Shown: positions 1,100 through 57,418 of the stretch, piece by piece
Position numbering within the stretch: position 1 is the first letter of the stretch
Layout: each line of letters begins with the position of its first letter
NCBI RefSeq assembly: GCF_030028105.1
Contig: NC_092387.1
Coordinates: 50,973,590 to 51,037,589, forward strand
From: Mobula birostris
Lineage: Eukaryota
Direction: 5' to 3'
Length of the DNA stretch: 64,000 bases
Translations under genes and position numbers: made by a program
The notes under the pieces: model-generated
The model's input: the letters and a program-made list of their open reading frames with translations, nothing else
What the model was told of the DNA's origin: nothing
Databases searched by the model: none

Positions 1100-3340
1100 A
1101 TTTTTCAAGTCCAGCACAACGTCGAAGTCTTCTTCTGCCATCTTTGTGTCAATGGCCATTTCTTTAGGTAGGACTCGTCAAAACAAATTGAGAATGCTTT
1201 CTTCAACCTGGTTCTCCCCCTCTGTTCTATTATTCTGTGTTCACCTACATATTGCTATAACCCACGTAACACTGCACTTACTCACTAACGTCCTTCTCTG
1301 GAGTTATTGCACTTCACCACTATGGACCAATCCAATATTGTCTTCAAAGGTATAGCCCTAATGAGAAGACTGGAATGAATATGGACAAAAATGCCACTGT
1401 TTGATGATACTGAACACAAACTTGTGAGGATCAGTGTCATCCTATAAGTTATTGTCTCTCAGACAGTTAATATCACCCAATTCCCTCTTATGCTGTCATG
1501 AAAGTTTCAACCCTGAACACCCCAATCATGAACATCCCATTTCCAACTCCTCCAAAAGTTGCACTGCTTAGTAAGCCTGCTGTTTCAATGTTCTTGATCC
1601 ACGGTAATTTCTCTGACCCCCGACTGTTCTCTCATCCATCTGACATCTCCTGTCATTTTGATAGCTTTCAGACGCTCATTTTCACCCTAGACATTCAGTC
1701 CCTCTACATCACCCTCCATTACAAGGATGGTCTTAAAGCCCTCCAACCCTTTCTTGGACAGATGCTAACCATGACCATCCTCTTTAACCTTCATGGACTT
1801 ACAGTCATCACCTTTACATTATTAATTGCCTCCAAATCAAAAGGTATGAATAAAGAAACCTGCAGGAGTACATACTATGCTGTCTCCTTGTTGGATGTGA
1901 AGAACAATCCTACTTGGGATTCCTTCCTCAGCTCATTTTCTGGTACAGCGATGGTCTTGATGCTGCTTCTTGCATTCATACCGAGCTCCAAAATGTCCTT
2001 AGCTTTGTTACCATGATCTCACTTTCACATGGTCCATCTCTCTTTCCTTTTCCTTAAAATAGGTGGATAGGTTAGCAACAAACTACTAGCAAAAGCCCAG
2101 AGATTCCCATCACTACCTTCACTACAGCACCTAAAAGATCCCACTTCATTTACCTAGTTTCTCTGCTGACCACACTTTCCACAGAGCTTCCAAAATGTTT
2201 TCTTTGTTCCTTCATTATGTCATTCCATTCACCATGGTTGACTGGGCATTTGTCTACATATGTTCCATCACCCACATTTCAGCATTCACCCCCTTCTCCC
2301 TCTCTGAGTGAGAACAGTGTTTCCCTTGTGCTCCCCTTCTACCGCAATCTGCTCCTTAACCCTCTATAATCAGGAAGATACCTTTCTACAATTTCCATCA
2401 CATTAAATGTGATATTTGGCACACTTTACTCTCCCATTTCAGCATTAAATAACAGTTCCATCTACGACTCTCTGGTCTCTTTTACAACTTTGACATCACT
2501 CTGGCTCTTTTTGATGGCACTTTCCAATGAAACTGCAGGAGATGCCAAACATCTCTCACTTCCACACCTCCCACCCCACAATCTAGCGAGCCAAACATTC
2601 CTAGGTGAAGCAGCAAATCATTCATACTTCTTACAAATCACATGCTTTCTATGTTGTCTCCTCTACACTGGACAAACCAAGTGTTGACTGGGCGACTGCT
2701 TTGCAAATCACCTCTGCTCAGTCCACAAGATTGATCCTGAGATTCTAGTTGTCTCTCATTTTACTTCTTCGTCATAGTGCTTGCCACTCTGACCTCTCTG
2801 TCTTCGGTTTCCTAAACCATTTCAACAAAGGGCAAAATAAACACAAGGAAAATCATTTGATCTCCTATTTATGTACCCTTGGGATTCAACAATGAAGTCA
2901 ACACTTCAGATAACCAGCCTTTGCAAATGGTATCATAACTGGTCATTAATCTGCAAAGTTAAATCAGGTTTCATCCCTCCACTCATGCTGTGCCTGGCTG
3001 ATGGACATTTCCAACACCAACTTTATCAGATTTCCAGCAACTGCAGTGTTTTGCTTCTCATAGTTCCGGCAATGTTATTCCATCCCCCCTCCCATACCAC
3101 ATCTCTCTTCATTCATCTATTTATATCTCCTCCAGACAGATCATCTATAATTAACAAATCTTCACCACCCATCTCCCAGCCAGCACCATTGCTACTTTCT
3201 TGATTTCTGTTTTATCCCTTTTCCCTTCTCTCCACTCCTCCTCATTTTCCAGGTTCTGATGAAAGGTCACAACTTGAAACATTAAGATTGTTTCCCTTGT
3301 CACAGACTTGCTGAGAATAGTAGAACTGATGATCTGCATC
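1100..3340 (+). mobile_element. Old degenerate Neptune-type Penelope-like element
   Basis: ORF 1498-2016 contains FTLDIQSLYITLHYKDGLKALQPFL, matching MDVQSLYTSIPHPEGLKALRYFL of the younger copy at 47465. Decayed endonuclease region at about 2600-2900. Hammerhead remnant CTGATGA (3256-3262)..GAAA (3276-3279). Confidence 0.7.
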
Positions 3341-4084
3341 TGATTATTCAGAAATCTTATGAAAATTCATTAGTTTGGAATGTGAGCTGGGGGCTTGGAC
3401 TGTAGGTAGGACAGCCAGATCCAGACCCGCAGCTGATCCAAGGCTGTGACCCAGAACACAGGTTTGTGGCTGGAACCAGAGCCTGAAATACCTGTATATT
3501 TCCCATTCTTTTTGATCTTGGCTGGTTCATGAGTGTCTTAAGAGCTAAAACAAAGACTATTCACAACCTATATCAGCAATAGTTTATTATTTGGTCACAG
3601 TGGTAAGATAGGCTGTTTGCACATTCATCAGTTCCAATGTAATACATTTTACCTCTAGTGTATCACAACTCAGCAATCTTTAAACACATTGCATTTTTCT
3701 TCCTACATTTGTATTCTAAGTTTCTTACCACATCCTCCTGAAAGTAACCTGCCTGCTCCATCTGGGTTAAATTTTAAACATACTGGCCGTGATCGTATAG
3801 ACTCCTTATTTAAAAAAAACACTAAATACTAATGAATGCAGTCTGGAGTAAGGGTATCTAGCCAAACCCATACTGAATGAACTCTAGCAACATTGATATT
3901 CTTTTACTTGACTGGCCTTATCGATTATACAGGTTGTCCTTCTCTTTTACCACAAAAGATGCAGCACTTCAAACATAGACATATCAGCTAAAATATTCAT
4001 TCTCATATCTTAATTAATTTTATTTTTGAAAGAGATAAATTTATATAATTTCAACCATAGCAATATGCATATAAAAACACTAAC

Positions 4085-4400
4085 ATGGTAAAATTCAAAT
4101 GGAATTGTTGCTCAGAGATAAGGAGTTAATTTGATGTAACCAGCAAAGATGCCTCAATAAGTGACAAAGAGCTGGTCAATTTTGGCAGTATTAGCTGAGA
4201 GAACATTATTGGTCAGGACATCCTTCCAAACATCATTGGACCTTTGGCATCCATTTAAACCAGTAGACACAATCCTGGCCAAGTATCTCCTCTGAGAGGT
4301 GACAAGTCCTCAAACTTCCAAGACTCTTCTGGGATTGCAATTTGAGATTCACAACTTAAAAGATTAAAATGCAAGAGTGCTAACAATGCAATCAAGTTGA
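4085..4400 (-). mobile_element. Deu-domain SINE relic (SacSINE1/AmnSINE-like)
   Basis: Degenerate similarity to the DeuSINE body. Related relics at about 22420-22720, 27540-27700, 29400-29540, 30560-30740 and 52740-53215. Confidence 0.45.
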
Positions 4401-6560: not shown

Positions 6561-7334
6561 CAAGATTTCTGGCTGATTTTCATTAGGTGTTAGTGCAGCT
6601 GTGAGATCCCAAGATAGTCTGACCAGTCTGGTGTATTTAACTTCTGTATCATTCATTACGTGTTAAACACTGGATAATTTTCAAAGGGATCTGATGAAAA
6701 TAGACTGACGTCCTTATCTGATCTTGAATGACTTGCCAGGTCAGGTGGGCAATTAAAGGTCAACTGGAGTCACATACTCAGATACATTAATAGTAAGTTG
6801 AGACAGAACAACATGAAAGCTTCATGGCTATTATTATTACTTACCTTTTATATCACATTTAATAACAATTTAAATTATCTATCTAACATGGTGGTGAATT
6901 TCTATAGATTAGTCCAAGGCACTGGAAAATGAATCAGTTTGTCACTATACTATCATACTCCTCCAGCTCCTCCCCTAAGTTATTAGATTTCACTCAATTA
7001 AAAGTTGATCATATTATGTAAATTGATAATCCAAAGTAGAACCGACCAAGTTGCTGCCATCCACTACACGTATGTGGTCTCCAGATGAGACCATTACAAT
7101 AATCCAATCTTTTTCCAGAATGCTCAAAGGATGTATTCTCTGGACTAACATAATTAGAAACATGTCCTCTGGCTGTTAACGCTCTCTTGGTGTGGCACTT
7201 ACCTGAACAAGTCATGAAATGCAGGGGTCTTTTAAAATCAAGTGTTTCTTACAGTCAAGAGTTCAGACAGACAAGACAAAAAGCAGAACTGAGGCTACAA
7301 ATGAAGAGATAGCTAAACTCAAGATTACATAAGC

Positions 7335-7862
7335 CTCTTTCACCTCAGACGGCTGAGGAAGTCTAGTATGGGCCCCCAAATCCTAAGAACCTTCTACAGG
7401 GGCACAACTGAGAGCATTCTGATTGGCTGCATCACTGCGTGGTATGGGAACTGTACCTCCCATAATCGCAGGATTCTACAGAGAGTGGTGCAGACAGCCC
7501 AACGCACCTGTAGTTGTGAACTTCCCATGATTCAGGACATTTACAAAGACAGGTGTGAAAAAAAGGCCCGAAGGATCATTGGGGACCCGAGTCACCCCAA
7601 CCACAACCTATTCCAGCTGCTACCATCCAGGAAACAGTACCACAGCATAAAAGCCAGGCTCTGGGACAGTTGCTTCCACCAGGCAATCAGACTGATTAAT
7701 TCACGCTGACATGAGTGGATTTTTATGTTACATTGACTGTTCTATTTATAAATTATTATAAGTTACTATGATTGCACATTGCACCTTTAGACAGAGAAGT
7801 AATGTAAAGATTTTTATTCCTCATGTATGTGAAGGATGTAAGAAATAACGTCAATTCAATTC
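7335..7862 (+). mobile_element. Rex1/Babar LINE 3' fragment
   Basis: ORF 7368-7709 FYRGTTESILIGCITAWYGNC...DPSHPNHNLFQLLPS is the typical Rex1/Babar C-terminus. Ends in a (caatt)n-like tail. Confidence 0.85.
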
Positions 7863-8246: not shown

Positions 8247-9380
8247 ATCTGCTCTCAGGTTGAGGCTTTGCATTCTAGAACAAAGGAGATGTCCTCCCTT
8301 TTCAAAGACAGGGGCTTCCCTTTCTCCACCATCAACGCTGCCCTCAACTGCATCTCTTCCATTTCACACACATTTGCTTTTACCCCATCCTCCCGCCACT
8401 CTACCAGGGATAGGGTTACTCTTGTCCTCACCTACCACCCTCCACGTCCAGCACATAATTCTCCGTAATTTCCGTCATCTCCAACTAGATCCCACCACTA
8501 AACACATCTTAACCTCCCCCCCCCATTTTCTGCTTTCCGCAGGGATCACTCCCTATGCGACTCCCTTGTCCATTTGTCCCTCCCCACTAATCTCCCTCCT
8601 GGCATTTATCCTTGCAAGCGGAACAAGTGCTACACCTGCCCTTACACCTCCTCCCTCACTACCATAACAGAGCCCTAAACAGTTCTTCCAGGAAAGGCAA
8701 CACTTCACCTGCGAGTCTGTTGGGGTCATATAATGTGTTCAGTGCTCCCGGTGTAGCCTCCTGAATATCAGCGAGACCTGACATAGATTGCAAAACCGCT
8801 TTGCCAAGCATCTACTCCCCATCCGCCAGAAAAAGCAGGCTCTCCCAGTGGCCAACCATTTTAATTCCACTTCCCATTCCGATATATCAATCCATGGCCT
8901 CCTCCACTGTCGTGATGAGGCCACACTTAGGTTGGTGGAACAACACCTTACACTCCGTCTGGGTAGCTTCCAACCTGATGGCATGAACATTGATTTCTCA
9001 AACTTCTGTTAATGCCTCCCACTCACCACCCCCCCTTCAGCATTTCCCATCCCCTTTTCCCACCCTCACATTTCCTTGCCCGCCCATCGCCTTCCTCTGG
9101 TGGTCCTTTCCCCTCCCCCCACCTCTTTTTCTTTCTTCCATGGCCTTCTGTCTCTTTCACCAATCAACTTCCCAGCTCTTTACTTCATCCCTCCCCCTCA
9201 AGTTTCACCTATCACCTGGTGTTTCTCTCTCCCCTCCCCCTCCCCCCACCTTTTAAATCTACTCCTCAACTTTTTATCTCCAGTCCTGCCGAAGGATTTT
9301 GGCCCGAAACGTTGACTGTACTGTTTTTCCCATAGATGCTGCCTGGCCTGCTGAATTCCTCCAGCATTCTGTGTGTGTTA
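8247..9380 (+). mobile_element. Neptune-type PLE, 5'-truncated
   Basis: Frameshifted thumb, Cys linker and GIY-YIG remnants (ORFs at 8226 and 8788). Pyrimidine-rich 3' UTR. Mutated hammerhead CTGCCGA (9286-9292)..GAAACGTT. Confidence 0.9.
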
Positions 9381-10196
9381 ATCAATATGGAGGAATTTAA
9401 GTTCTGCATTTGTCTAACTCAACGATTTATTTGAGGACTGGCATATTTGAAAAATCACTAGACTCATTTTGAACCTTTAGCAAAAATTAAACATTAACAA
9501 ATAGACTAAAACGTTTATATATCATACTGGGTACATTATCCTGCAAGTCTACATGCAAGCAAAAAGGGGCAATCTAGAATTCTGCACTTGACTACTTGTA
9601 CCTTTGGATTTTAACCATTTTAATTCTGAAATATGTGCATTTCTAAAGACAGTAAGGAATTCTTAACAGAATAAAAGTTGACAGCTGTAGTTTAGAATAT
9701 TAGGTAAGCAGAAGGCAGTTTAGGCAAGTATAGGATCTGAAGGCAATTACTATCAACTGCTGAGGATTGAAGTATCTTGTGTTGCTAGGTGGAGTTTAAT
9801 AACAGCTGATAAATAATTGCTTCCTGACATAGCAATACAAATGCTTTCAAGAACTTAATGTATAGAAAACTGCATGCCAAACCATCTCACTATTTGCAGC
9901 TCGCTTTCAAGTTAGATGGAATGATGACTTGGACATGAGCACGTGTATTTTCACCATCACTGAATTAAAGTGCTGCAGTCCTCTACCTGGCAGCAACATG
10001 GAGCCATTTCACCCCATTCCCAGGATAACAGGAGGTGGGAAAGTGTGAAAGGAAGGGAAGGGCAGGGAAATCAAAATCAAATTTCACCAGTGAGGCAATG
10101 CTGTTATTTCACTTTGTCTCTCATTCAAAGACGTAGAAAAGAGAAACAACTTCAGAATAAGCAAGCACTGTGTAATTTTTAATTAAGGCAACTCAC

Positions 10197-10275: not shown

Positions 10276-10481
10276 CTGGAAAACAAATATTCTTCTGTTG
10301 GCAATTCTGAGCTTGCAGAAAGTTGCATAATTAATCAGTACATATGTTCCAGTTATATTTAGTTTGGTTATATTTAATCGGAAAAGGCTGCAGAAAGTTG
10401 CAAACTCAGACAGCTCCACATCTTCAAAATGCGATGCCTCAAAAAGGCAGCATCCATCATTAAGAACTCTCATCAGCCAGG

Positions 10482-11485
10482 ACATAAGAACATAAGGAAG
10501 AGGAGCAGAGGCAGGCCATCCGGCCCATTGAGCCTGCCCTGCCATTCAATAAGATCATGGCTGATCTGTCCGTAAACTCAGCTCCATCTACCTGCCTTTT
10601 CCCCATAACCCTTAATTCCCCTACTATGTAAAAATCTATCTAACTGTATCTTAAATATATTTAGTAAAGAAGCCTCAGCTGGGCAGAGAACTCCACAGAT
10701 TCACCACTCTGGGAAAAACAGTTTCTCCTCATCTCCGTCCTAAATCTTCTCCCCTGAATCTTGAGGCAATGTCCCCTAGCTCTAGTCTCACCTACCAATG
10801 GAAATAACTTTCCTACTTCTTAACTATCCCTTTCAAAATTTTGAATGTTTCTATAAGATCCCCTCTCATTCTTCTGAATTCCAGAGAGTATAGTCCCAGC
10901 AACTCAATCTCTCCTCATAGGTTAACCCCTTCATCTCTGGAATCAACCTGGTGAACTTCCTCTGCACTGCCTCCAAAGCCAGTATATCCTTCCTCAAGTA
11001 AGGAGTCCAGAACTGCACACAGTATTCCAGGTGCGGCCTCACCAGTACCCTGTATAGTTGCAGCATGACTTCCCTGCACTTGAATTCAATCCCTCTAGCA
11101 ATGAAGGCCAACATTCCGTTCGCCTTCTTAATAACCTGTTGTACCTGCAAACCAACTTCTTGCAATTCATGCACAAGCACTCCAAGTCCCTCTGCACAAC
11201 AGCATGCTGCAATCTTTCACCATTTAAATAATAATCTGCTCTTCTATTATTCCTTCCAAAGTGGATGATCTTGCATTTACCAACATTGTATTTCATCTGT
11301 CAGACCTTGGCCCACTCACTTAACCTATCTATATCCCTCTGCAGACTCTCCACATCCCCTGTACAATTTGCTTTTCCACTCAGTTTAGTGTCATCAGCAA
11401 GTTTTGCTATGCTACACTCAGTCCCCTCTACCAAATCATCAATGTAAATGGTAAACACTGCAGGCCCAGCACCAACACCTGCGGC
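10482..11485 (-). mobile_element. CR1 (HER1-like) LINE 3' fragment
   Basis: ORFs at 11300, 11039 and 10866 give KLADDTKL, VQRDL and LVRPHLEYCVQFW in shifted frames. Inserted in a Rex-like relic (about 10380-10480 and 11500-11750). Confidence 0.9.
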
Positions 11486-11827
11486 ATACACACTCCTCAT
11501 TTCTACCCTCATCGAGAAGTTACAGGAGCCTGAAGATATACACTCAACATTTTAAGTACAGCTTCTTCCCCATTACCATCTGCTTTCTGAATAGAGACTA
11601 ACTCACTATAATTTTTGCTCTCTTTTTGCATCTTAAGTTACTTTTTGTATATATTTCTTACTATAATATAGTTTTAAAATTATGTATTGCAATGTACTAT
11701 AGCCTCAAAACAACACATGCCAGTGATATTAAAGCTGATTTAAATTATGGACCACACAGAAACATCAGTACATCATGTCATACATTGTTATGTCTATGGA
11801 CAGTGCGAAGACAGATGAGATTTATAT

Positions 11828-12968
11828 ACATAGAACATAGAATAGTACAGCACAGTACAGGCCCTTTGCCTACAATGTTGTGCCGACCTTTAAACCCTGT
11901 CTCCCATATACCCCCCCCACCTTAAATTCCTCCATATACCTGTCTAGTATTCTCCTAAATTTCACTAGTGTATCTGCCTCCACCACTGACTCAGGCAGTT
12001 CATTCCACGCACCAGACACTCTGAGTAAAAAACTTCCCTCCAATATTCCCCTTGAACTTCCCACCCCTTACCTTAAAGCCATGTCCTCTTGTATTGAGCA
12101 GTGGTGCCCTGGGGAAGAGGCACTGGCTGTCCACTCTATTTATTCCTCTTAATATCTTGTATACCTCTATCATATCTCCTCTCATCCTCCTTCTCTCCAA
12201 AGAGTAAAGCCCTAGCTCCCTTAATCTCTGATCATAATCCACACTCTCTAAACCGGGCAGCACCCTGGTAAATCTCCTCTGTACCCTTTCCAATGCTTCT
12301 ACATCCTTCCTATAGTAAGGCGACCAGAACTGGACACAGTATTCCAAGTGTGGCCTAACCAGAGTTTTATAGAGCTGCATCATTACCTCGCAACTCTTAA
12401 ACTCTATCCCTCGACTTATGAAAGCTAACACCCCATAAGTTTTCTTAACTACCCTATCCACCTGTGAGACAACTTTCAGGGATCTGTGGACATGTACCCC
12501 CAGATCCCTCTGCTCCTCCACACTACCAAGTATCCTGCCAGTTACTTTGTACTCTGCCTTGGAGTTTGTCCTTCCAAAGTGTACCACCTCACACTTCTCT
12601 GGGTTGAACTCCATCTGCCACTTCTCAGCCCACTTCTGCATCCTATCAATGTTGCTCTGCAATCTTCGACAATCCTCTACACTATCCACAACACCACCAA
12701 TCTTTGTGTCGTCTGCAAACTTGCCAACCCACCCATCTAACCCACATCCAGGTCGTTAATAAAAATCACGAAAAGTAGAGGTCCCAGAACCGATCCTTGT
12801 GGGACACCACTAGTCGCAACCCTCCAATCCGAATGTACTCTCTCCGCCATGACCCTCTGCTTTCTGCAGGCAAGCCAATTCTGAATCCACCTGGCCAAAC
12901 TTCCCTGGATCCCATGACTTCTGACTTTCTGAATAAGCCTACCGTGTGGAACCTTGTCAAATGCCTTA
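11828..12968 (-). mobile_element. CR1 LINE 3' fragment (young)
   Basis: 229-aa ORF 12000-12689 with WQMEFNPEKC, QRDLGV, LVRPHLEYCVQFWSP and RRMRGDMIEVYKI. (ttctatg)n 3' tail. Confidence 0.95.
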
Positions 12969-14268
12969 CAAATATACTTACGGAAATTAGAGCAAAAGCT
13001 GATGAATCGAAATCAGGTTTATTATCACCGATGTAGGATGTGAAATTTGTTGTTTTGCAGTAACCCTAAAGATGAGGTCTGCTTATTAGGAATTGATACA
13101 ATATTCAAAAAGGAGTTCTCCAAAAACTCAATGTAGAAGCCAATATACACAAATGAAGCTTCAACCGAACTTCAGGATCAGTTACCCCAACATCAGTAAT
13201 GGGGACATGGCTCAGAGTCCTCTCAGATATACAAAGCAACATAAATCAAGACAGACTTTGAAGCAAAGACTTGTCAAAGAATTGTTATTTGCTATTTAAT
13301 TATTTGGACACTAATACAAATTTTCATTAACATTGCTGACCTAAAACTACAAAAGCCTTACGGAATCAGTAAACCTGGCACAGAACTCCAACCTCACTCC
13401 CCCTATCCCCCACTACCCGACAGAATGATTCCAGTTTCATAGTTGTTCTGGGTATAATCCTATTCAAATCTATACTAATAAGTAAATTAAAAATGGTAGT
13501 GTGACAATCCAAATGTTCTTATTAATAATGCAAAACCGCATTCTATTGCAAATGATGGTCTTCTATACAAAATTGAAAATATTTCATGGCAACTATAAAC
13601 TTCCTTCAAACCCAGAGACACCTAACCCCGTCTTTACTGAACAACAGTTAGAGTTTGTGAATCACTACCTGAGTTATGAAGAGCAACATTGGACGACGGA
13701 TATTCATTATATGACAAAAAAAAATCCTTATTTTACAGTGACTTAAAGTTGAGAAATCACGGGAGTCTTTCTATAACAGCTGACACTAGAATATCATTTC
13801 ATTTGTCTCCATTGCTCCTTGTTATGAACTTAACTCAACATATACTTACAACTACCCGAAGAATCAATCCAACAATGATCCTATGAGACTCAACTTCAGG
13901 TTTTTGAGCTAATTACATCACCCTGCTGAAGTAACTTTGTAGCCCAGTCATTTTGCTTCCAAGGTATAATTGGAATTGCTGAATTCTGTTAAATTGATAT
14001 CCCAACATAATTTGCTATGGACACTGCACTTTGCCTGCACTGCCTTTTGTCTGTAACTTCAACACTATATTCTGCATTCAGGATTCCCCCCTCCCCAGCT
14101 TCATTCTACCTTAGTGTACTTATGTATGGAATGACGTCTCTGGATGGGATGCAAACAGAGCTTTACACGCAAACAACAGGAATTCTGCAGATGCTGGAAA
14201 TTCAAGCAACACACATCAAAGTTGCTGGTGAACGCAGCAGGCCAGGCAGCATGTCTAGGAAGAGGTGC

Positions 14269-14304
14269 AGTCGACGTTTCAGGCTGAGACCCTTCGTCAG
14301 GACT
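14269..14304 (-). ncRNA. Minimal type I hammerhead ribozyme
   Basis: AGTC-CTGACGA-A-GGGTCTCAGCCT-GAAA-CGTC-GACT: intact core, stem I AGTC/GACT, GUC cleavage triplet. Confidence 0.75.
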
Positions 14305-15799: not shown

Positions 15800-15835
15800 A
15801 GTCCTGACGAAGGGTCTCGGCCTGAAACGTCGACT
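15800..15835 (+). ncRNA. Minimal type I hammerhead ribozyme
   Basis: AGTC-CTGACGA-A-GGGTCTCGGCCT-GAAA-CGTC-GACT. Confidence 0.75.
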
Positions 15836-27921: not shown

Positions 27922-28082
27922 ATATAAACTTAATTATTTATCTTTCCTTTAATTTGAATGCAATTGGCTCAACTACCCTACCTATTGATCAGGTGATTAT
28001 AAATATATGGTTCATGCATTTTGCCTATAAATTTTCAGTGTAGTACTGAACAGAACGTGTAGAACGTTTCAGTGCAGTACTG

Positions 28083-39698: not shown

Positions 39699-39806
39699 AG
39701 CTGAATGGAATTCTTAAGAAGCTGGGCCAGACAGAAAAATGGATGGAGGAATCAGTTCTAACTGGTTGTACAGAAAGTCTTGTGCCACAGTTTGCACTAG
39801 ATTTAG
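39699..39806 (+). CDS. NUDT13: NUDT13 coding exon 3
   Basis: ELNGILKKLGQTEKWMEESVLTGCTESLVPQFALDL; 108 nt; donor G|GTGAGA. Confidence 0.95.
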
Positions 39807-43204: not shown

Positions 43205-43311
43205 GACAAACTGAAAAGGCCGGAGCAGAAATGCTACTAAAGGGAAGGTTTGTAGAATTTCGGAAAGCCTTCTTCCTTGTGGAAGGAAAGGATTCAACTC
43301 TGCTATCCCAG
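43205..43311 (+). CDS. NUDT13: NUDT13 coding exon 4
   Basis: GQTEKAGAEMLLKGRFVEFRKAFFLVEGKDSTLLSQ; 107 nt; donor CAG|GTAAGA. Confidence 0.92.
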
Positions 43312-43687
43312 GTAAGACAAAAGTTTTGGCAAATTTTGAAGATAAATATTGCTTCCATGCAAGTGTCAGATCTAGATGTTTCTGATGTGTGGCTGAAACG
43401 AGAGGGTATGATGGTGGGCTGGAGGGAGAGGAGGTAAATGCACCTACACACTGTGTGTATTAATGTGGGGTGAGGAGGGCTGTTATGTAGGTAATATATT
43501 TTAATTTTCTCTGGTTCTTATGCCTCTCATAGATTGCTTTCAGAACTTTATGTTACTGCATCCGCAGAATATTGCAGTTTTAATTTCAGGCTAGGCTCTG
43601 GTCTTGGACGTTCTAAAGTGGGCTTTTCTTGCACGTTCAAGTTCAAGTGAAGTTACTACATACATGTATATAACATATGAAACTATA

Positions 43688-44003: not shown

Positions 44004-44375
44004 ATTATAATGTATATAGAAATAAGACAATCTTTCTTTGAACCAGGATGTAAAGCACAGTAGTACACATAACACATGATAACTTATGAAGGTAAGGATA
44101 AAATCTACAGATGAATGACACATAAATAACGAACTGAAGTACATTCATATTGAATATTGGAAGGTACGGAACAGATTAATCAGTGAACACGATGTGGCTG
44201 AGAGTTTAGTAGCCTAATGGCCTGGGGGAAGAAACTGTTTCTCATCTTGACAGCTCTTGTTTTAATATATCCTAATGCTGGAATTAACATTACAGATAAG
44301 TGATCTAAGAGTCCAACATGGAGTTGAGGGACTACTTTATAGGCACCGGGTATGTTAGTGCAAACCAGGTCTATT

Positions 44376-45050
44376 GTCACAGCAGGCAGTGAAGAAAGCT
44401 AATGGCATGCTGGCCTTCATAACAAGGGGAATTGAGTATAAGAGCAAAGAGGTCTTTCTGCAGCTGTACAGGGCCCTGGTGAGACCACACCTGGAGTACT
44501 GTGTGCAGTTTTGGTCTCCAAATTTGAGGAAGGACATTCTTGCTATTGAGGGAGTGCAGTGTAGGTTCACAAGGTTAATTCCCGGGATGGCGGGACTGTC
44601 ATATATCGAAAGTTTAGAGCAACTGGGCTTGTATACTCTGGAATTTAGAAGGCTGAGAGGGTATCTTATTGAAGCATATAAGATTATTAAGGGATTGGAC
44701 ATGCTGCAGGCAGGAAGCATGTTCCCGCTGATGCGTGAGTCCAGAACCAGAGGCCACAGTTTAAGAATTAGGGGTAGGCCATTTAGAACGGAGTTGAGGA
44801 AAAACTTTTTCACCCAGAGAGTGGTGGATATATGGAATGCACTGCCCCAGAAGGCTGTGGAGGCCAAGTCTCTGGATGCTTTCAAAAAAGAGATGGATAG
44901 AGCTCTTAAAGATAGCGGAATCAAAGGTTATGAGGATAAGGCAGGAACTGGATACTGATTGTGGATGATCAGCCATTATCACAGTGAATGGCGGTGCTGG
45001 CTCGAAGGGCCGAATGGCCTACTCCTGCACTTATTGTCTATTGTCTATTG
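44376..45050 (+). mobile_element. CR1 LINE 3' fragment (young)
   Basis: 194-aa ORF with LVRPHLEYCVQFWSP..FFTQRVVDIWNALP; (tattgtc)n tail. Confidence 0.95.
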
Positions 45051-45440
45051 TATTCTGGTTCAGAAGCAGGAGTTCTTTTACTCAGCCACATGCGTATCCC
45101 ATATTGATTCATGGTAACTTAACAAGTCAGTTTATTTAATGAAGTATTTTTAATACAACTGCTAATTGCATTTAGCAATTTATCTTTTTACCCCAACATA
45201 AAAATATAAATAACTTACATTGACAATATTAAAAAATTATAAATCAATGATATTGAACATAATAGTGAAATGAATTGACTTCTGGCCAGAAGTTTATTTT
45301 TAATTCAAGTCAAGTACATTTATTATCAAATAATGTATAAATTATATACACAAAATAAACTGCAGATGCTGTGATCAAAGCAACACTTTCAGTACGCTGG
45401 ATGAACTCAGCAGGTCGGGCAGCATCAGTTAGAAACGATG

Positions 45441-45476
45441 AGTCGACGTTTCGGGCCGGAACCCTTCGTCAGGTCT
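45441..45476 (-). ncRNA. Minimal type I hammerhead ribozyme
   Basis: AGAC-CTGACGA-A-GGGTTCCGGCCC-GAAA-CGTC-GACT. Confidence 0.7.
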
Positions 45477-48400
45477 GAAGAATGAAAGATGGGGAAGGAT
45501 TTGAAGAATGCTTGTAGCTTCAGTTGAAAGACCAGTAATTTGAAAGACAAAGGGGTGGGGGAGGGGAAGCATTGACGTCATAGCTCTTGAAAACAATGGG
45601 TAGTAGAAGAAGGAGGCGGAACCATGAGGGAGGTGATAGGCAGCTGGGGGAGGGGAAGAGTGACATAGGGATAGGGGAAGGGAGGGGGAGGGAATTACCG
45701 GAAGTTGGAGAATTCTATGTTCATACCAAGGGCCTGGAGACTACCTAGATGGTATATGAGGTGTTGCTCCTCCAACCTGAGTGTAGCCTCATCATGGCAG
45801 TAGAGGAGGCCATGTATGGAGATATCTGAATGGGAGTGGGAAACAGAGTTGAAGTGGATGGCACCGGAAGATCCTGTCTGTTGTGGCGGACGGAGTGGAG
45901 GTGCTCGACGAAGCGGTCCCCCAATCTGCGTCGGGTTTCACCGATGTAGAGGAGGCCGCACCGGGAGCACCGGATGCAATAGATGACCCCAACAGACTCA
46001 CAAGTGAAGTGTTGTCTCACCTGGAAGGATTGTTTGGGGCCCTGAATGGTGGCAAGAGAGGAGGTGTAGGGACAGGTGTAGCACTTACACTTACAGGGAT
46101 AAGTGCCGGGTGGGAGATCAGTGGGGATGGACGTGCGGATAAGGGAGTCGCGGAGGGACCGATCCCTGCGGAAAGTGGAGAGGGGTAGAGAGGGAAAAAT
46201 GTGCTTAGTGGTGGGGTCCTGTTGAAGGTGGCGGAAGTAGTGGAGGATAATATGCTGGATCCGGAGGCTAGTGGGGTGGTAGGTAAGGACAAGGGGAACT
46301 CTGTCCCTGTTGTGGTTGCGGGAGGATGGGGTGAGGGCCGTAGTGCGAGAAATGGGGGAGATGCGGGTAAGGGCGTCCTTGACGACGGTAGAAGGGAAAC
46401 CATGATCCTTGAAGAAAGAGGACATTTGAGATGTCCTGGAACGGAAAGCCTCATCCTCGGAGCAGATGTGATGGAGACGGAGAAACTGGGAATAGGGAAT
46501 GGCATTTTTGCATGTGGCGGGGTGGGAAGAGGTATAGTCGAGATAGTTATGAGAGTCAGTGGGCTTGTAGAAGATGTCAGTGGAAAGTCTGTCTCCAGAG
46601 ATGGAGACCGAGACATCGAGAAAGGAGAGAGAAGTGTCCGAGATAGAGGAAGTGATATATTGAATTTGAGGGCTGGGTGGAAGTTTGAAGTAAAGTCGAT
46701 GAAATTGACGAGCTCAGCATGGGTGCAGGAAGCAGCACCAATGTAGTCTTCAATGTACCGAAGGAAAAGTTGGGGAGCAGTACCAGAATAGGTTTGGAGC
46801 ACAGACTGTTCCACATAACCAACGAAGAGGCAGGCGTAGCTGGGTCCCATGCGAGTTCCCATAATAGACATGGGAGTATATAATAGAATGAAGCACTCGA
46901 TCTCTTCATCTCCAACTGTCGGCGAGACATCAACCGTCTCAACTTCACCACTCCTCTCTCCTGTTCCAACCTCACTCCCTCTGAATGCACTGCCCTCCAC
47001 TCTCTCCGCACTAATCCCAACCTCACTATCAAACCTGCTGATAAAGGTGGTGCCATAGTAGTCTGACGGATGGACCTCTACCTCACTGAGGCAAAACGGC
47101 AGCTGACACCTCCTCTTACTTACCACTGGAACTGGACCCCACCAAAAAACATCAAACCATTATCTCCCGCACCATCACCACCCTTATCAACTCCAGAGAC
47201 CTTCCATCCTCAGCCGCTAATCTCATTTTTCCCACACCCCGTACCGCTTGGTTTTACCTCCTCCCAAAGATACACAAGCCTAACTGTTCTGGTAGGCCCA
47301 TAGTTTCTGCCTGCTCCTGTCCCACCGAACTTGTAACTGCCTACCTGGACTCCATTTTGTCACCCATAGTTTAGTCTCTCCCCACCTACATCCGGGATAC
47401 ATCCCATGCCCTCCACCTCTTCAATAACTTCCAATTCCCCGGTCCCAACCACTACATTTTTACTATGGATGTCCAGTCCTTATACACCTCCATTCCCCAT
47501 CCAGAAGGCCTCAAAGCCCTCCGCTACTTCCTGGATAATAGACCTCACCAGTTCCCCCCCACCACTGCCCTCCTCCAGTTGGCGGAACTGGTTCTCACAC
47601 TTAATAACTTCTCTTTTTGCTCTTCCCACTTCCTTCAGACTAAGGGTGTAGCTATGGGAACTCGCATGGGACCCAGCTACGCCTGCCTCTTCGTTGGTTA
47701 TGTGGAACAGTCTGTGCTCCAAACCTATTCTGGTACTGCTCCCCAACTTTTCCTTCGGTACATTGAAAACTACATTGGTGCTGCTTCCTGCACCCATGCT
47801 GAGCTTGTCAATTTCATCGACTTTACTTCAAGCTTCCACCCAGCCCTCAAATTCAATATATCACTTCCTCTATCTCGGACACTTCTCTCCCCTTTCTCGA
47901 TGTCTCGGTCTCCATCTCTGGAGACAGACTTTCCACTGACATCTTCTACAAGCCCACTGACTCTCATAATTACCTCCACTATACTTCATCCCACCCCGCC
48001 AAATGCAAAAATGCCATTCCCTATTCCCAGTTCCTCCGTCTCCGCCGCATCTGCTCCGTGGATGAGGCTTTCCATTCCAGGACGTCTCAAATGTCCTCTT
48101 TCTTTAAGGATCGTGGTTTCCCTTCTACCGTCATCAAGGATGCCCTCACCCGCATCTCCTCCATTTCCTGCACTTCGGCCCTCACCCCATCCTCCCGCAA
48201 CCACATCAGGGACAGAGTTCTCCTTGTCCTTACCTACCACCCCACCAGCCTCCAGATCCAGCATATTATCCTCCGCTACTTCTGCCACCTTCAACAGGAC
48301 CCCACCACTAAGCACATCTTTCCCTCTCCACCCCTCTCCGCTTTCCGCAGGGATCGGTCCCTCTGCGACTCCCTTATCCGCACGTCCATCCCCACTGATC

Positions 48401-49030
48401 TCCCACCTGGCACTTATCCCTGTAAGTGTAAGTGCTACACCTGTCCCTACACCTCCTTTCTTGCCACCATTCAGAGCCCTAAACAGTCCTTCCAGGTGAG
48501 ACAACACTTCACTTGTGAGTCTGTTGGGGTCATCTATTGCATCCGGTGCTCCCGGTGCGGCCTCCTCTACATCAGTGAAACCCGACGCAGATTGGGGGAC
48601 CGCTTCGTCGAGCACCTCCACTCCGTCCGCCACAACAGACAGGATCTCCTGGTAGCCACCCACTTCAACTCTGTTTCCCATTCCCATTCAGATATCTCCA
48701 TACATGGCCTCCTCTACTGCCATGATGAGGCTATACTCAGGTTGGAGGAGCAACACCTCATATACTGTCTAGGTAGTCTCCAGCCCCTTGGTATGAACAT
48801 AGAATTCTTCAACATCCGGTAATTCCCTCCCCCTCCCTTCCTCTATCCCTATTTCAATCTACCCCCTCCCCCAGCTCCCTCATGGTTCTGCCTCCTTCTT
48901 CTACTACCCATTGTTTTCAAGGGCTATGATGTCAATGCTTCCCCTCCCCCACCCCTTTGTCTTTCAAATTACTGGTCCTTCAACTGAAGCTACAAGCATT
49001 CTTCAAATCCTTCCCCATCTTTCATTCTTC

Positions 49031-49066
49031 AGTCCTGATGAAGGGTTCCGGCCCGAAACGTCGACT
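49031..49066 (+). ncRNA. Minimal type I hammerhead ribozyme, sense to the NUDT13 pre-mRNA
   Basis: AGTC-CTGATGA-A-GGGTTCCGGCCC-GAAA-CGTC-GACT; predicted cleavage after 49062. Confidence 0.8.
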
Positions 49067-49283
49067 CAATGTTTCTGACTAATGCTGCCCGACCTGCTGA
49101 GTTCATCCAGCGTACTGAAAGTGTTGTATAAAGTATATAACCTTGAGATTAACTTGCAGAATTCTGGGAAATTCTGTTGTACTGTATATCTTTCCTTGGT
49201 TTACAGTGCTGGCCACTGCAATTAGATAGTGATAAAAAAGCATCTTGGCCTGAAACACCAACTCTTTATTACTCTCCATAGAT

Positions 49284-49364
49284 CAGTGGTCCCCAACCTT
49301 TTTAATGCCGTGGACCTGTAACATTAACAGAGGGGGTCCGTGGACTCCTGCTTTAGCGCCCCTG
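49284..49364. mobile_element. hAT-type MITE nested in a PLE tail
   Basis: cagtggtccccaacc...gcccctg ends; 8-bp TSD ccatagat / caatagat at 49276-49283 and 49365-49372. Confidence 0.75.
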
Positions 49365-49592
49365 CAATAGATGCTGTCTAACTTGCTGAATTCCTCCAGC
49401 ATTTTGTGTGTCTTACTCTGGATATCCGGCAGCTGCAGACTCTTGTATTTGTGACAAAAGATTGCTCTGTTTCTATGAGTTTAAATTTATGATCAATCTC
49501 CTCAGATTTGTATTCTGAATTTTCACTGAGCTTATATTTCAGGTCAGACTATCTATGGGGAATGTGAGTCACAATAATGTGATGTATTTTAG

Positions 49593-49718
49593 GCTCAGGC
49601 CCTTCTCCGTTGGCACAGCACACATCTCTACTGTGGTAGAACTGGACAACCAACGCAGAAAAATATATCCGGCAGTAAACGTGTCTGTGGCACAGATGAA
49701 GTAATCTATTATCCACAG
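49593..49718 (+). CDS. NUDT13: NUDT13 coding exon 5
   Basis: AQALLRWHSTHLYCGRTGQPTQKNISGSKRVCGTDEVIYYPQ (degenerate zinc-ribbon region); 126 nt. Confidence 0.97.
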
Positions 49719-50762: not shown

Positions 50763-50874
50763 ATGTCTCCTGTGGTTATCATGTTGGTATCCAATGGAAC
50801 ACATTGCCTGCTGGCACGTCAAAAGGGATTTCCTCCTGGAATGTATAGTGCACTGGCTGGATTCTGCAACATTG
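50763..50874 (+). CDS. NUDT13: NUDT13 coding exon 6
   Basis: MSPVVIMLVSNGTHCLLARQKGFPPGMYSALAGFCNI; 112 nt. Confidence 0.97.
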
Positions 50875-51548: not shown

Positions 51549-51703
51549 GAGAGACAGTGGAAGAGGCTGTGCATCGAGAAGTGGCGGAAGAAGTCGGTTT
51601 GGATGTGTCCTCACTGTCGTATTCTGCATCCCAACACTGGCCCTTTCCCAGTAGTTCTCTGATGATTGGGTGCCATGCAATGGTGCAGCCAAAGCAGAAC
51701 AAG
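51549..51703 (+). CDS. NUDT13: NUDT13 coding exon 7 (Nudix box)
   Basis: [18 protein letters not shown] completes GX5EX7REUXEEXGU; SQHWPFP NADH-diphosphatase signature; 155 nt. Confidence 0.98.
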
Positions 51704-52448: not shown

Positions 52449-54419
52449 CTTTGTAACTAGCCCCAAGAAGATAACAAGAAATGCCCAGTTGATGCTATGT
52501 ACTCTTCTGTTTGTGGCAAAGGTTGTGACTCCATTATATTCCTATTGCAAGAAACCAAGCTAGGAAGAACTCACCACATGAGGATGTTTTGGATGGATCC
52601 AATACACAGCACATTGCTTTGAAACTCCGATCCATTTTGCATTTTTAGTCAAGAGGTCTTGCTACTGAGTTCTGTCATTGCCATCACTTACGTCAAATCT
52701 TCAAATCTCAATGTATTTCACAATTCTTTATAAGAGAATGGAAACACTTCCATGTTTATAATGCCTTTCAATGAACTCTGAAATTACTAAGTACTTCATA
52801 ATCATTGAGGTACTAATAACGTGTAATAAATTTTGAAGTTTAGAAAAATCCAACAAGCAGATAGAACAGTGAATTGCAGGCCATTTTATAACCTTTTTTG
52901 CAATTTATTTTAATGATGCTAGTGGATGGATGCATATTAGACTAGGACATCCTAGATGCTGCCTGACTTACTGAGTTCCTCCATCATTTTATGTGTGTGT
53001 GTGTTGCTCTGGATTTCCAGCATCTGTAGAATCTCTTGTGGTCAATAAAAACCCTCTTTTTCAAACTAGTGCCATGAAATCTTGTTAATTTGGGAGTATG
53101 GACAGGACCTGATTTCTGAATGACAGAAATTCTGTGACAGCAGTGGACAACCTAGTAATTTTGCTTAATTCTCTAGCATGGGATTTAAAGGCACTGCTTT
53201 CTGCTTCAAGAGTGACAGTCATAGAAAAGTACAGTACAGGAACAGGCCCTTCAGCCCATCTAGTCCATGCCAAATCATTTAAAATGCCTACTCCCATCGA
53301 CCTGCACTGGGACCATAACCATCCATACACTTACCATCCATGTATCTATTCAAACTTCTCTTAATAGTTGAAATTGAGCTCAGATGCACCACTTGTGGTG
53401 GCAGCTCATTCCTGGCATTTTTCCTGTCAATTATTCTTTTTTTTAATGTGAGGAGTGAGTAATCTTCACTTTTGGCAGGCATTGTATAAATTGGGTAATG
53501 GAGAATAAAATGGGATTAGTGATTAATAGTTGGAGCAACCCAGGGGGTTTTGCCTCCATGCTGTGTGACACTGTTTATGCATAACCTGGACTGTGTGTGG
53601 AATAAACCTCGTTCTACCATATACGTTCTACATTTTCCAAACTCAAATGAGCATTCTGAGCTGCAAAGACTGCCAATCAAACATAGAATTTATGTTGAAA
53701 AGTTGGCCTTTGTGATTAATGTGATTAACACTTGGCATTGACAGGAAAGCCACAAGAGAGAGAAAAAGATTTTTTCCAGTGTATTCAGTCTCTTTTATCT
53801 TTGTTTTCTCAGTGTGTGCATTTCTGGCAGGGCCAAACTTTTATTAACAGCTACCGTTCACATTTCTCTTGCATTATCTAATATTCTATAAATCCTGCAC
53901 TGAGATTTTATTTACAAGCTCTTCCATATATGATGATGATTAATTAGAGAAACTTGTACAGAAAACTGACTGGCAGTTCGTTCTTTACAAATAGGACAAA
54001 TATGGTATAATTAACCTTTAAAGAGAAATGTTTTCCCCTCTTTTAACAGTCATAACTACCGTTTTGTAACTCAGTCATTAGTGATTAATATGGCCAAGTC
54101 GCACAGCTACATATCAACTAACTACTTTACAGTCCGTCATACACTATAAATTTTCTTGTGAAATGCACACAAAATGCCGATGAAGGGTTTTGGCCCAAGA
54201 TGTTGGCTGTTATTCCCTTTCATAGATGTTGCTTGACTAGCTAAGTTCCTTCAGCATTTTGTGTGTGTTGCTGTAGATTTCCAGCATTTGCAAAATCTCT
54301 TGTGTTTATAAATTTTCCTGTATCTTATTAACTCAAGACAAGTTGTATTTGACAAAAGTATTTGTTGCTACTGCCACTGTAATTTCCAAATATTGACAAG
54401 CATTTTGTTATGGCTTCAG

Positions 54420-55062: not shown

Positions 55063-55177
55063 AATAAATCTTCACATCAACAGAAGTATCCCTGTTGAAG
55101 CATTTTGAAACAAAGTTTCAGTTAATCCTGTTCATTGTTAATCTGATTCATTAAAACATTTTACTTATGCTAATAAA
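55063..55177 (+). terminator. Candidate NUDT13 polyadenylation signals
   Basis: AATAAA at 55063-55068 and 55172-55177, downstream of the stop codon. Confidence 0.4.
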
Positions 55178-56820
55178 GTCTCTCTATTTTAAGTACTCCT
55201 AAACTAATTTATGATAATGATTACCATGAGAAATTGAGGATTACTGTAAATAGACTTTGATGAATGATACATTTTTAATGTTAATTACAGAGCTATTTCC
55301 TTACAGTTTTGTGCCCTATGAGTAATTTCTTATCACTAACAATGTCAAAAGGACCTCATAGCAATTTGTTTTTTTCACTTCATCTAAAGTTTGAATAAGT
55401 AAGGGATTAAACAACCCCAAGGCCGACACAAAGCCCTTCTGTTTGTCTTGTATAACTAGACAGTATTTAGTGTTTAAAATGATGAGTGCATAGAATTCAC
55501 AGTACACAGTGTGTCACAACTGTCAGGGTTCTTTCTACGCCCCAGTTACTGTACAAAAACAGTAATGAATTGAAATGGAATCATTTACTATTGACTGATG
55601 ATATAAGGTGAATGATGAGAAACAAAAGTGGAAAATGCTGGAAATACTCGGTATGTCAAGGTTCATCTGTGGGGAGAGAAACAGTAAAAAGGTTTGTAAA
55701 GCTGTTTGACAAACCCCTTCCCCCTCTCTCCTTGCAGTTTTCACCCTCTCATGTCCATCTACCACTGCAGGCTTACAAGCTTCTATTGACTCCTTTTAAG
55801 TTCTGACAAGGAGTCTGAAACATTGATGCTGTGTCTCTCTCCACAGATACAGCCTGACATACTGAGTGTTCCAGTAATTTCCATTTTTGTTTTAGATTTT
55901 CAGCATCTGCAGTGTTTTTTTTATTTTACATTGCAAGCTTGCAGGTAAAGGAAATGTGTGCTACAAATGAACAGAGCTATGTGGTATTTATGTGGAATAT
56001 TTGGAATTATAACAAACTGTTGCAAAATTTATTGTCTAGTATCTTGTACTTTTAATGGTACAGGAGGCCATTCAACTCTAGGCTAGCTTCTAGACAGGCA
56101 GCACCTACAGTCCTATTCCCTCTCTCATTTCCCTCTGTCACATGCATATAATTTCATAATGTCACAAAAGAATGTGCAAACTCTGCATCGGCAGTGCCCA
56201 TGATCAGGAACAAATCCACTCAATTGGAGCTGTTAATTATGCCATCGAGTTAGGTAGGTAATAAAAATTATGTCTTTGTAGGGGAATGCAACAGAAATAC
56301 TTATATTATTTTACACTTATTCTTATTTCTTATGTTGGTGCAATCAGTGAAGGGAAAGGTAAGTGTATCCCAGACTTCATGATTGTGACGACGTGAGGAT
56401 CTGATGTCAACAAAGGAATGGTGGGGTGGGGGGATGGAACACAAAGGAAAAGAGGGAACAGGGTTAGCTATGGAGTTGCAGTAGATTACAGAGGAAGAGC
56501 TGCAAAACGTGGGCGAAATTTGAAAGAAAGGTGTGGATTTCAAAATAGGTGAATTATTGCAAAACTGTTCAACCCATGACTTAATATCACTTCGATTCTC
56601 CTCTTATCTCAGGGCCTTGGAAATGTTTCTTTTTTATACATTTATCCTTTTTGATAATGTGGTATGCAGAAGAAAATCTTTTCGTACCAATTATTAAACG
56701 TGATTTTTCGTTACCAAGCCAGGTTAGAAATAGTTTCTTCACATAATTTTGAACATCTTTTAAAATAAAATGTCTCCTAAATCATTTCCATTCCAAGCAA
56801 AATGATCTTACTTAGCTTTA

Positions 56821-57418
56821 AAACGCTCTCTCCGCCAGAGAAAGCAGGATCTCCCAGTGGCCACACATTTTAATTCCACATCCCATTCCCATTCTGACAT
56901 GCCTATCCACGGCCCCCTCTACTGTAAAGATGAAGCCACACTCAGGTTGGAGGAACAACACCTTATATTCCGTCTGGGTAGCCTCCAACCTGATGGCATG
57001 AACATTGACTTCTCTAACTTCCACTAATGCCCCACCTCCCCCTCGTACCCCATCTGTTATTTATATACACACATTCTTTCTCTCACTCTCCTTTTTCTCC
57101 CTCTGTCCCTCTGACTATACCCCTTGCCCATCCTCTGGGTTTCCCTCCTTCTCACTTTTTCCTTCTCCCTGGGCCTCCTGTCCCATGATCCTCCCATATC
57201 CCCTTTGCCAATCACCTGTCCAGCTCTTGGCTCCATCCCTCCCCCTCCTGTCTTCTCCTATCATTTTGGATCTCTCCCTCCCCCTCCCACTTTCAAATCT
57301 CTTACTAACTCTTCCTTCAGTTAGTCCTGACGAAGGGTCTCGGCCCAAAACGTCGACTGTACCTCTTCCTAGAGATGCTGCCTGGCCTGCTGCATTCACC
57401 AGCAACTTTGATGTGTGC
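56821..57418 (+). mobile_element. Neptune-type PLE 3' fragment
   Basis: End of the endonuclease ORF and 3' repeat; hammerhead with GAAA>AAAA. TSD tacttagYttta at 56809-56820 and 57419-57430. Confidence 0.92.

Follow-up and report, generated by a model that had tools for sequence, protein, structure and literature searches.

The window analyzed here is a 64,000-nucleotide (nt) stretch of the genome of the ray Mobula birostris (contig NC_092387.1, positions 50,973,590 to 51,037,589). Around and inside its host gene, NUDT13, lie 20 insertion events of Penelope-like elements (PLEs) that together occupy 13,284 bp, or 21% of the window, as counted by hand from repeat, profile, open reading frame (ORF), and end data. 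Three subfamilies (A, B, and C) can be aligned, in addition to older remains. The window also contains hammerhead ribozyme motifs, and we consider it highly probable that these are the 3' ends of 5'-truncated, often fold-back, Neptune-type PLEs that have massively expanded in elasmobranchs, each with a 36-nt minimal hammerhead.

A pattern running from C3 to the end of stem I matched the window exactly five times, at 14269-14300 (minus strand), 15804-15835 (plus), 37698-37729 (plus), 45441-45472 (minus), and 49035-49066 (plus). None of 100 shuffles of the window reached five matches (mean 0.00), and a core-only descriptor gave 8 matches where 0.03 were expected. The 36-nt motif has type I topology, with an open-ended stem I and a closed stem II of 4 bp each. 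CUGAYGA follows the first strand of stem I, and one extra A leads into stem II, which is capped by a tetraloop; then come GAAA, CG, U16.1, and C17. There is no stem III; positions 15.2/16.2 form a palindromic CG in all five core-intact young copies. The extra A between A9 and 10.1 is found in 14 of 15 scored rows and also in the copy at 17983, where C3 lies at 17983 and a deletion affects stem II and GAAA. Pair 10.1-11.1 is G-C in subfamily B and G-U in the majority of subfamily A, whose 11.1 site is position 14281. This arrangement of stem I, stem II, extra A, and ACGT is as the original prediction, made from the sequence alone, had described it. The five sites it listed as intact do have intact cores, but all stems form at just three of them: 45441 reads AGAC instead of AGTC, and at 37698 an inversion junction removed one strand of stem I. 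The five sites are:

49031-49066, plus strand: fully formed 36-nt hammerhead, subfamily B, predicted cut between 49062 and 49063; sense, in coding intron 4 of NUDT13.
15800-15835, plus strand: fully formed hammerhead, subfamily A, with G10.1-U11.1; arm of an inverted insertion.
14269-14304, minus strand: fully formed hammerhead, subfamily A; opposite arm of the insertion holding 15800-15835.
45441-45476, minus strand: hammerhead with intact core and a stem I mismatch; inverted partner of 49031.
37698-37729, plus strand: hammerhead with intact core that has lost the 5' strand of stem I; inversion junction.

The catalytic core (C3 U4 G5 A6 N7 G8 A9 / G12 A13 A14 A15.1 / U16.1 H17) is complete, at 12 of 12 positions, in 8 of 15 scored sites, and C17 is present in 6 of those 8. 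The ten decayed sites named originally all exist. U17 occurs in 7 of the 10, several lack G8 or G12, and many losses are CpG changes at C17, G12, and C15.2. Although all of the roughly 15 sites are present, they are not independent: they belong to 12 insertion events, and the five with intact cores sit in three head-to-head insertions (14170-15851, 37606-37829, and 45347-49126). A profile of the 3' module, built on 14 window copies that match by construction, gave 37 hits, 27 of them with E<0.05, against 5 hits (best E 6.5) in the reversed window, and by this measure the window holds more copies than had been named. TRF found no tandem array of the motif in the window; the two closest pairs of cores on one strand are spaced by 1,302 and 1,332 nt, and both involve decayed copies.

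Eleven of the 20 events are inverted, two of them with weak support, and ORF sequence is absent from 13; the 7 ORF-bearing events all end in the motif. The insertions, with the module that lies 3' of the hammerhead and the target-site duplications (TSDs), reverse transcriptase (RT) and endonuclease (EN) sequences that they carry, are:

45347-49126, both strands: fold-back insertion of a Neptune-type PLE; the tail is on the minus arm (45347-46863) and missing from the plus arm (46864-49126), with 94.7% identity between the arms; 8-bp TSD; broken RT (DKG motif, weak RVT_1 match) and GIY-YIG with a CX3CxxC linker.
14170-15851, both strands: fold-back PLE insertion, subfamily A; minus arm with a piece of EN ORF and tail, plus arm of 240 nt; 7-bp TSD.
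37606-37829, both strands: short fold-back insertion, both arms truncated inside the hammerhead; coding intron 1 of NUDT13.
27707-27924, both strands: short fold-back insertion, subfamily C; decayed hammerhead at 27826.
17911-18063, both strands: short fold-back insertion; decayed hammerhead at 17983; plus arm interrupted by a piece of long interspersed nuclear element (LINE).
28084-29287, plus strand: 5'-truncated subfamily A copy with a piece of EN ORF; hammerhead at 29154 with G8 changed and U17.
56831-57423, plus strand: 5'-truncated subfamily A copy; hammerhead at 57323 with G12 changed to A.
8247-9383, plus strand: 5'-truncated subfamily C copy; decayed hammerhead at 9282.
39930-41166, plus strand: 5'-truncated subfamily C copy; decayed hammerhead at 41074; coding intron 3 of NUDT13.
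1657-3314, plus strand: old PLE copy with RT/EN traces (32-45% amino acid identity), ending in a hammerhead-like motif at 3256.
42360-42500, plus strand: short copy with tail; decayed hammerhead at 42376; small inverted piece at the 5' end.
54165-54307, plus strand: short copy with tail and a 12-nt inverted arm; decayed hammerhead; 11-bp TSD.
20142-20208, minus strand: short copy without hammerhead, starting ~5 nt past the cut site; 12-bp TSD.
49237-49450, plus strand: short copy split by a small insertion (~49284-49360).
52950-53043, plus strand: short copy with tail, without hammerhead.
55633-55921, both strands: old 3' module pair, probably inverted.
57688-57810, minus strand: short copy broken in stem II, with a small inverted piece.
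63041-63232, both strands: old inverted 3' module pair.
16262-16429, both strands: very old, weak 3' module pair.
18765-18808, plus strand: small 3' module fragment.
14170-14268, minus strand: conserved module 3' of the hammerhead, a stem-loop holding both element ends.

The small insertion at 49284-49360 lies inside a PLE fragment, has a short duplication, and presumably resembles a DNA-transposon relic. At 39861-40008, four tandem 37-nt units of PLE ORF sequence stand at the 5' junction of a PLE copy.

All copies are truncated at the 5' end. Their 3' ends fall either ~+60-66 or ~+95-103 from the cut site, the gap between the two corresponding to the PLE 'tail', and loose contig ends of public sequencing runs also mark the tail end at 14170. 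The tail is on one arm only in four of five judgeable pairs, and the short arm of the fifth ends at +19. Clean TSDs, 7-12 bp long and AT-rich, were found in 4 of 18 events tested by script, and both long fold-backs (14170-15851 and 45347-49126) have them. As a folded structure, the stem-loop 3' of the hammerhead is not significant (z -0.86 to +0.84), and we kept it only as a conserved block, in which one apparent compensatory change was seen by eye.

The short copies had been put forward as non-coding derivatives. Their 5' ends differ between copies (-33 to +29) and are mostly inversion junctions with microhomology; because they show these varied ends, TSDs, and inverted partners, they look like 5'-truncated PLE insertions rather than a separate family, as judged from their sequences. 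Were the short copies (~70-230 nt) instead a non-autonomous family resembling short interspersed nuclear elements or retrozymes, with a 5' end near the hammerhead and moved in trans by the Neptune protein, this would fit the 13 events without ORF sequence, the completeness in short copies of the module holding the RT start, and the derivation of animal retrozymes from PLEs (bioRxiv 10.64898/2026.07.22.740005; comparisons with the literature, here and below, draw on the accessible parts of the cited sources). It would also fit the positions of the 15 listed 5' ends, 10 of which crowd into 17 nt of the hammerhead, with the span from -34 to -208 left empty. Those 15 ends exclude ORF-bearing copies, three were adjusted or estimated by eye, and ends at 55799 (~-40), 18765 (+41), 63166, 55633, and 16262 were left out as old or poorly aligned. 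Such a cluster arose in 0 of 20,000 trials under a uniform null and had a p of 0.007 under an exponential null with a mean of 50 nt, but was not significant if complementary DNA (cDNA) is short (p 0.10, mean 30 nt), and we treat it as a lead rather than a result. Given that the 5' ends vary by copy, that short and ORF-bearing copies come from the same subfamilies, and that the window has no tandem arrays, we find a separate non-autonomous family quite unlikely. The single opposite-strand joint among the listed contig joints of public runs involves 14303, at the edge of stem I.

Conservation of the motif was measured on 7 long window copies. Between subfamilies, identity over the 36-nt motif is 0.78, without gaps, compared with 0.28-0.59 in the upstream untranslated region (UTR), 0.67 just downstream, and 0.72-0.82 over the last 180 nt of the EN ORF, such that the motif exceeds its UTR flanks and matches the protein. 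Within subfamilies, the motif (0.88) is conserved much as most flanking windows are (0.83-0.95). In all four public runs placed on 14000-14750, loose ends accumulate precisely at the edges of the motif, 14268 and 14304, among 24 listed of ~2,400 rows.

Related elements were drawn from metagenomes, using the best 80 of 502 confirmed loci, some of them duplicates. Among the 57 loci whose downstream sequence reaches at least 300 nt, 26 have the motif 79-142 nt past the ORF; three shuffles produced no hit. A covariance model gave 52 matches in the 80 loci, 17 of them its training sequences, and recovered degenerate motifs in several loci that lack a strict match. Across 24 aligned motifs, two-sided changes occur at 8 of 8 pairs, a result reached by 0 of 500 shuffles. 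As 17 of the 24 had been found by a descriptor demanding pairs, the set was partly chosen for pairing, and the search was therefore repeated without that demand: stem I forms in 24 of 33 distinct cores, against 5.0 expected when 3' strands are swapped. In these 33 relatives, 15.2/16.2 is self-complementary in 26, and 10.1-11.1 is G-C in 27. The window's young subfamilies alone show no covariation. In one related locus, L010, an open frame of 989 aa is flanked on either side by the motif, the two copies lying 3,066 nt apart.

The motif was thus under selection in the active element, because its conservation between subfamilies equals that of the protein and because its position is shared by distant relatives, in which the stems covary. 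In the inserted copies the sequences give no sign of selection; they decay. The identification of the motifs as minimal type I hammerheads in PLE 3' repeats, put forward in the original prediction, is borne out by conservation above the flanks across subfamilies and by stem covariation in distant relatives. The youngest subfamily is mostly G10.1-U11.1 (~77% by summed contig depth in run X1), which may be a real variant rather than CpG decay.

Three of the related loci (L010:540-3647, L031:317, and L037:66) are apparently full-length PLEs, whose open frames of 989-1139 aa extend across the upstream hammerhead. On the minus strand of L052, near 2030, lies a different hammerhead, canonical or retrozyme-like, with a 6-nt palindromic stem III and a 6-bp stem I.

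The window copies encode an RT followed by a C-terminal GIY-YIG domain, with two Cys between GIY and YIG and a DKG motif. Their Pfam matches (RVT_1, E 9e-5; GIY-YIG, E 4e-4 and 1e-3) all fall below curated cut-offs, and the ORFs are broken. The RT-EN linker reads CX3CxxC in subfamily B and CX4CxxC in subfamily A; a CX2-5CxxC linker marks Neptune or Nematis and is absent from Penelope/Poseidon (PMC8557442). Protein homologs from rays and sharks show 56-81% identity, those from marine invertebrates 35-49%, and several of the related loci carry the motif listed for an Acropora Neptune element (PMC4209133, Fig. S3/Table S1). By these features, of which the linker is shared with Nematis, we class the element as a putative Neptune-type PLE; the Acropora motif in its relatives points to Neptune over Nematis only indirectly. 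The exact ray motif had 0 matches in viral contigs and 0 in metagenome contigs, and 0 of 128 candidates in viral contigs were related proteins. Five ray gene models named after ordinary genes (P0001, P0007, P0008, P0014, and P0025) contain the PLE ORF, which may reflect exonization or annotation error; in P0007 and P0014, the C-terminal read-through is compatible with hammerhead codons.

A full-length active element would carry the motif in both pseudo-long terminal repeats, ~3 kb apart. As it has no stem III of its own, the hammerhead would cut only as a pair, after GUC, when two copies pair their ACGU palindromes, probably helped by the element's protein, and such paired cutting would trim the PLE RNA out of a longer transcript. 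The PLE protein would nick AT-rich DNA and start reverse transcription ~60-100 nt 3' of the cut site, in the stem-loop. With the start just 3' of the hammerhead, the hammerhead would be copied first, and so nearly every truncated copy would have one. The cut site is crossed in nearly all copies and is the starting point of none, so the template would have been uncut, or cut and re-ligated, at the moment of reverse transcription. In a model from PMC4209133, the two hammerheads free a unit-length RNA whose ends are ligated into a circle, and RT, having begun 60-100 nt 3' of the junction, copies across it and onward round the circle. The RT-start ends just 3' of the cut site, the copies crossing that site, and the relatives with the motif at both ends of a full ORF all agree with a circular template. 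An uncut linear template gives the same pattern, however, and hammerhead mutants of the Anolis element left in vitro insertion unaffected, with no RNA-seq reads ending at the cut site (PMC11167929); on balance, we regard the circle as possible but somewhat unlikely.

The isolated monomer is predicted to fold as an inactive rod in which G5-G8 pair with the cut site (P 0.95-1.0). We tried the idea of a 'safety-lock', in which this pairing was itself selected, and rejected it: the helix shows no covariation, is reached by 123 of 500 shuffles, is broken at N7 in 10 of 24 sequences, and is lost in longer context. The rod could also be taken to mean that the motif has lost its cutting activity in these rays and is retained as a signal for protein binding or folding, as could the prevalence of G10.1-U11.1 in the youngest subfamily where 27 of 33 relatives have G-C, and the low published activity of such motifs (PMC4209133). 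Yet it is the catalytic core that rays and invertebrate relatives conserve, with covarying stems, and the Anolis motif cuts when its protein is present, with C3G/G8C rescuing (PMC11167929). A non-cutting signal is therefore, in our estimation, unlikely. The original prediction held that these hammerheads cleave best as dimers. Published minimal motifs are indeed uncut as monomers and show some cleavage as dimers, but at a low level (PMC4209133), and the lizard PLE hammerhead cleaves only with the PLE protein (PMC11167929). Cleavage of the ray motif is predicted to be weak and to depend on a dimer or on the element's protein.

Several observations weigh against our reading of the motifs as hammerheads from Neptune-type PLEs. 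Compared with shuffles, the isolated motif shows no folding advantage (z -0.69 to +0.49). The predicted energy of the double hammerhead is -9.5 to -14.7 kcal/mol, whereas inactive dimers reach -23 to -28, in a model that does not include tertiary contacts. An Rfam scan of the window returned no hammerhead family among 7 chance hits (E up to 5); with neither a stem III nor an Rfam model match, the motif departs from canonical Hammerhead_1. A strict match is absent from 31 of the 57 related loci, and the window holds no full-length copy. None of the 15 listed 5' ends starts at the cut site (closest ~+5), and no loose ends of public-run contigs cluster there among the 24 listed of ~2,400 rows.

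The original prediction of a very abundant family stands, given the many window copies and a large pile-up of public-run contigs. Fully formed motifs occur at 47 per Mb in the window (95% interval 10-137), the three being not independent, and recognizable ones at 234 per Mb (131-387). A single 751-nt stretch drew more than 100,000 contigs from each DNA run, and so the family must be very large. Summed contig depth in X1 is 5.3-5.9 million over the motif and 7.9 on a flank, a hint only and no copy number; dividing summed depth by 31 gives ~2x10^4 as a floor. Coelacanth and Xenopus have 4,000 and 9,000 minimal motifs per genome, respectively (PMC4209133), and the local density in the ray is far above theirs. 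Very high-copy vertebrate hammerheads are already known, with 126,247 hammerhead motifs in axolotl (PMC7229834).

The host gene, which the original prediction did not mention, is on the plus strand and has its coding parts at:

35466 to ~54600, plus strand: complete NUDT13 coding region, 8 exons, AG/GT at internal borders.
35466-35549, 38424-38562, ~39697-39806, and 43205-43312, plus strand: NUDT13 coding exons 1-4.
49593-49718, 50763-50874, 51550-51703, and 54420-~54600, plus strand: NUDT13 coding exons 5-8.

Each exon is 84-98% identical to the Hypanus protein over the aligned stretch. A second host gene was not found among 137 ORFs, which gave a NUDT13 exon, one LINE RT, and one marginal match, nor among shorter minus-strand ORFs, 0 of 60 of which gave a hit. 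Most of intron 4 is taken up by a 1.5-kb inverted repeat of 94.7% identity that ends ~470 nt before exon 5 and is likely to form long double-stranded RNA and an editing substrate.

As the five core-intact sites are arms of three fold-backs, a read-through transcript would pair each with its own antisense copy. In the predicted read-through RNA, all 36 nt of 15800-15835 pair with 14269-14304; the fold-back duplexes reach -204 kcal/mol (B arms) and -150 kcal/mol, and stem II has a probability of 0.0 at 37698. Each core-intact, C17-bearing young copy is thus predicted to be masked by its own inverted arm. With this masking and no tandem units, the window-wide network originally proposed does not hold up. 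Could the host nonetheless have co-opted them into a network that regulates genes such as NUDT13 by cleaving their intronic RNA? A fully formed sense copy, 49031-49066, does lie ~530 nt before exon 5, and the plus strand holds 8 of the 9 insertions that are not inverted (p 0.04). That lean extends outside NUDT13, however, with just 3 of the 9 within its coding span, and the motif in inserted copies is no better conserved than its flanks. The decayed sites, with their frequent U17 and losses of G8 or G12, the lack of a tandem partner, and the predicted complete pairing of intact sense copies to antisense arms likewise speak against co-option, which we judge highly improbable. In the reading favored here, the window copies are dead passengers, decaying largely at CpG, and host RNA is probably not cut by them. 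Most likely, the ray PLE hammerhead is functional in origin and inert in the window copies.

A further idea, speculative and in our view distinctly improbable, is that the hammerhead load of rays, among the densest known, is kept harmless by the geometry of self-masking fold-back pairs, with unmasked copies purged. The load would be ~50 fully formed and more than 200 recognizable motifs per Mb as in the window, possibly 10^5 or more per genome. Within the hammerhead fold, cDNA synthesis would tend to halt and change strands, giving rise to fold-back insertions. Copies that stay intact would be found mainly as self-masking pairs, and unmasked sense copies would be lost or mutated, because pre-mRNA would be cut by them in the presence of the Neptune protein or whenever two of them meet. 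The core is intact in 3 of 3 young inverted events and in 0 of 2 young single copies. If this geometry does protect the host, ray genomes would amount to a large natural experiment on PLE hammerhead cutting in vivo.

Elsewhere in the window, other retroelement fragments, which we take to be of CR1/L2 type, lie at 10477-13065, 18054-18813, 20844-21732, 44359-45028, 7333-7861, and 31090-31617, with RVT_1 hits at 12003-13012 and 21224-21709. A GC-rich tandem repeat (29950-30146; period 64, 3 copies), in a stretch enriched in CpG, precedes the NUDT13 start by ~5 kb. Further CpG enrichment is found near 5-7 kb, 32-33 kb, and 62-63 kb, and an assembly gap of 158 N spans 32064-32221.

Among the minimal hammerheads of metazoan PLEs described in PMC4209133, the closest to the ray motif is that of Neptune from Acropora digitifera. 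The ray motif shares with the published set a CUGANGA core, an extra base before stem II, GAAA, a 2-nt palindrome replacing stem III, a short stem I, a U-rich 5' flank, a location in PLE terminal repeats, and an occurrence mostly as single truncated copies. It differs in its ray-specific stems, its 4-bp stem II with wobble pairs, and the G10.1-U11.1 of the youngest subfamily, and the UTR between ORF and motif is longer in the ray than in the related loci (~210-310 nt vs 79-142). We found no row for a cartilaginous fish in Table S1 and Fig. S3 of that paper, as far as these were accessible.

As in the Poseidon PLE of Anolis carolinensis, PAc (PMC11167929), the ray hammerhead lies just 5' of two RT start sites split by the tail, and targets are AT-rich; the two-strand extension described for PAc fits the ray fold-backs with a tail on one arm. 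The ray element carries the CX2-5CxxC linker and thus belongs to a different clade, and whereas the ORF of PAc starts inside the hammerhead, the ray element is known from truncated copies only. With the endonuclease-bearing Neptune and Nematis PLEs of PMC8557442 it has in common the C-terminal GIY-YIG, CCHH-type cysteines, CX2-5CxxC linker, DKG motif, 5' truncation, inverted copies, and a 30-40-bp tail at one end. Unlike in the published account of those elements, TSDs are visible in the ray and no (TA)n microsatellite insertion was seen. Overall, the insertion anatomy, with 7-12-bp AT-rich TSDs and a one-arm tail, matches PMC8557442 and PMC11167929.

Non-LTR (non-long terminal repeat) retrozymes (PMC7229834; bioRxiv 10.64898/2026.07.22.740005) likewise have type I hammerheads from PLE termini and high copy number. 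Theirs are head-to-tail tandem repeats, often with canonical hammerheads, whereas ray copies are dispersed singles or head-to-head pairs; the window has no array of at least two head-to-tail units with complete hammerheads, by which retrozymes are recognized. In run X5, the contig joints 14304-14268, 14315-14274, and 14321-14278 may be retrozyme-like tandem duplications of a 36-45-nt hammerhead. The preprint reports retrozymes tied to PLE termini in one chondrichthyan genome, and its tables may already cover related families. Our literature search, whose scope excluded most subscription papers, Repbase, and Dfam, found no description of this chondrichthyan hammerhead family.

The motif is an elasmobranch addition to the known minimal hammerheads of PLEs, ordinary in kind and notable for its abundance; as such hammerheads have been known since 2014, no concept is changed. 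These motifs go wholly undetected by Rfam, so tallies of ribozymes in the genomes of sharks and rays are probably too low. Both PMC8557442 and PMC11167929 leave the role of PLE hammerheads unsettled, and the elasmobranch family, with young copies, several subfamilies, and many insertions, provides the statistics to test that role from the genome alone, by comparing cDNA stops with the cut site and by asking whether intact sense intronic copies are depleted unless masked.

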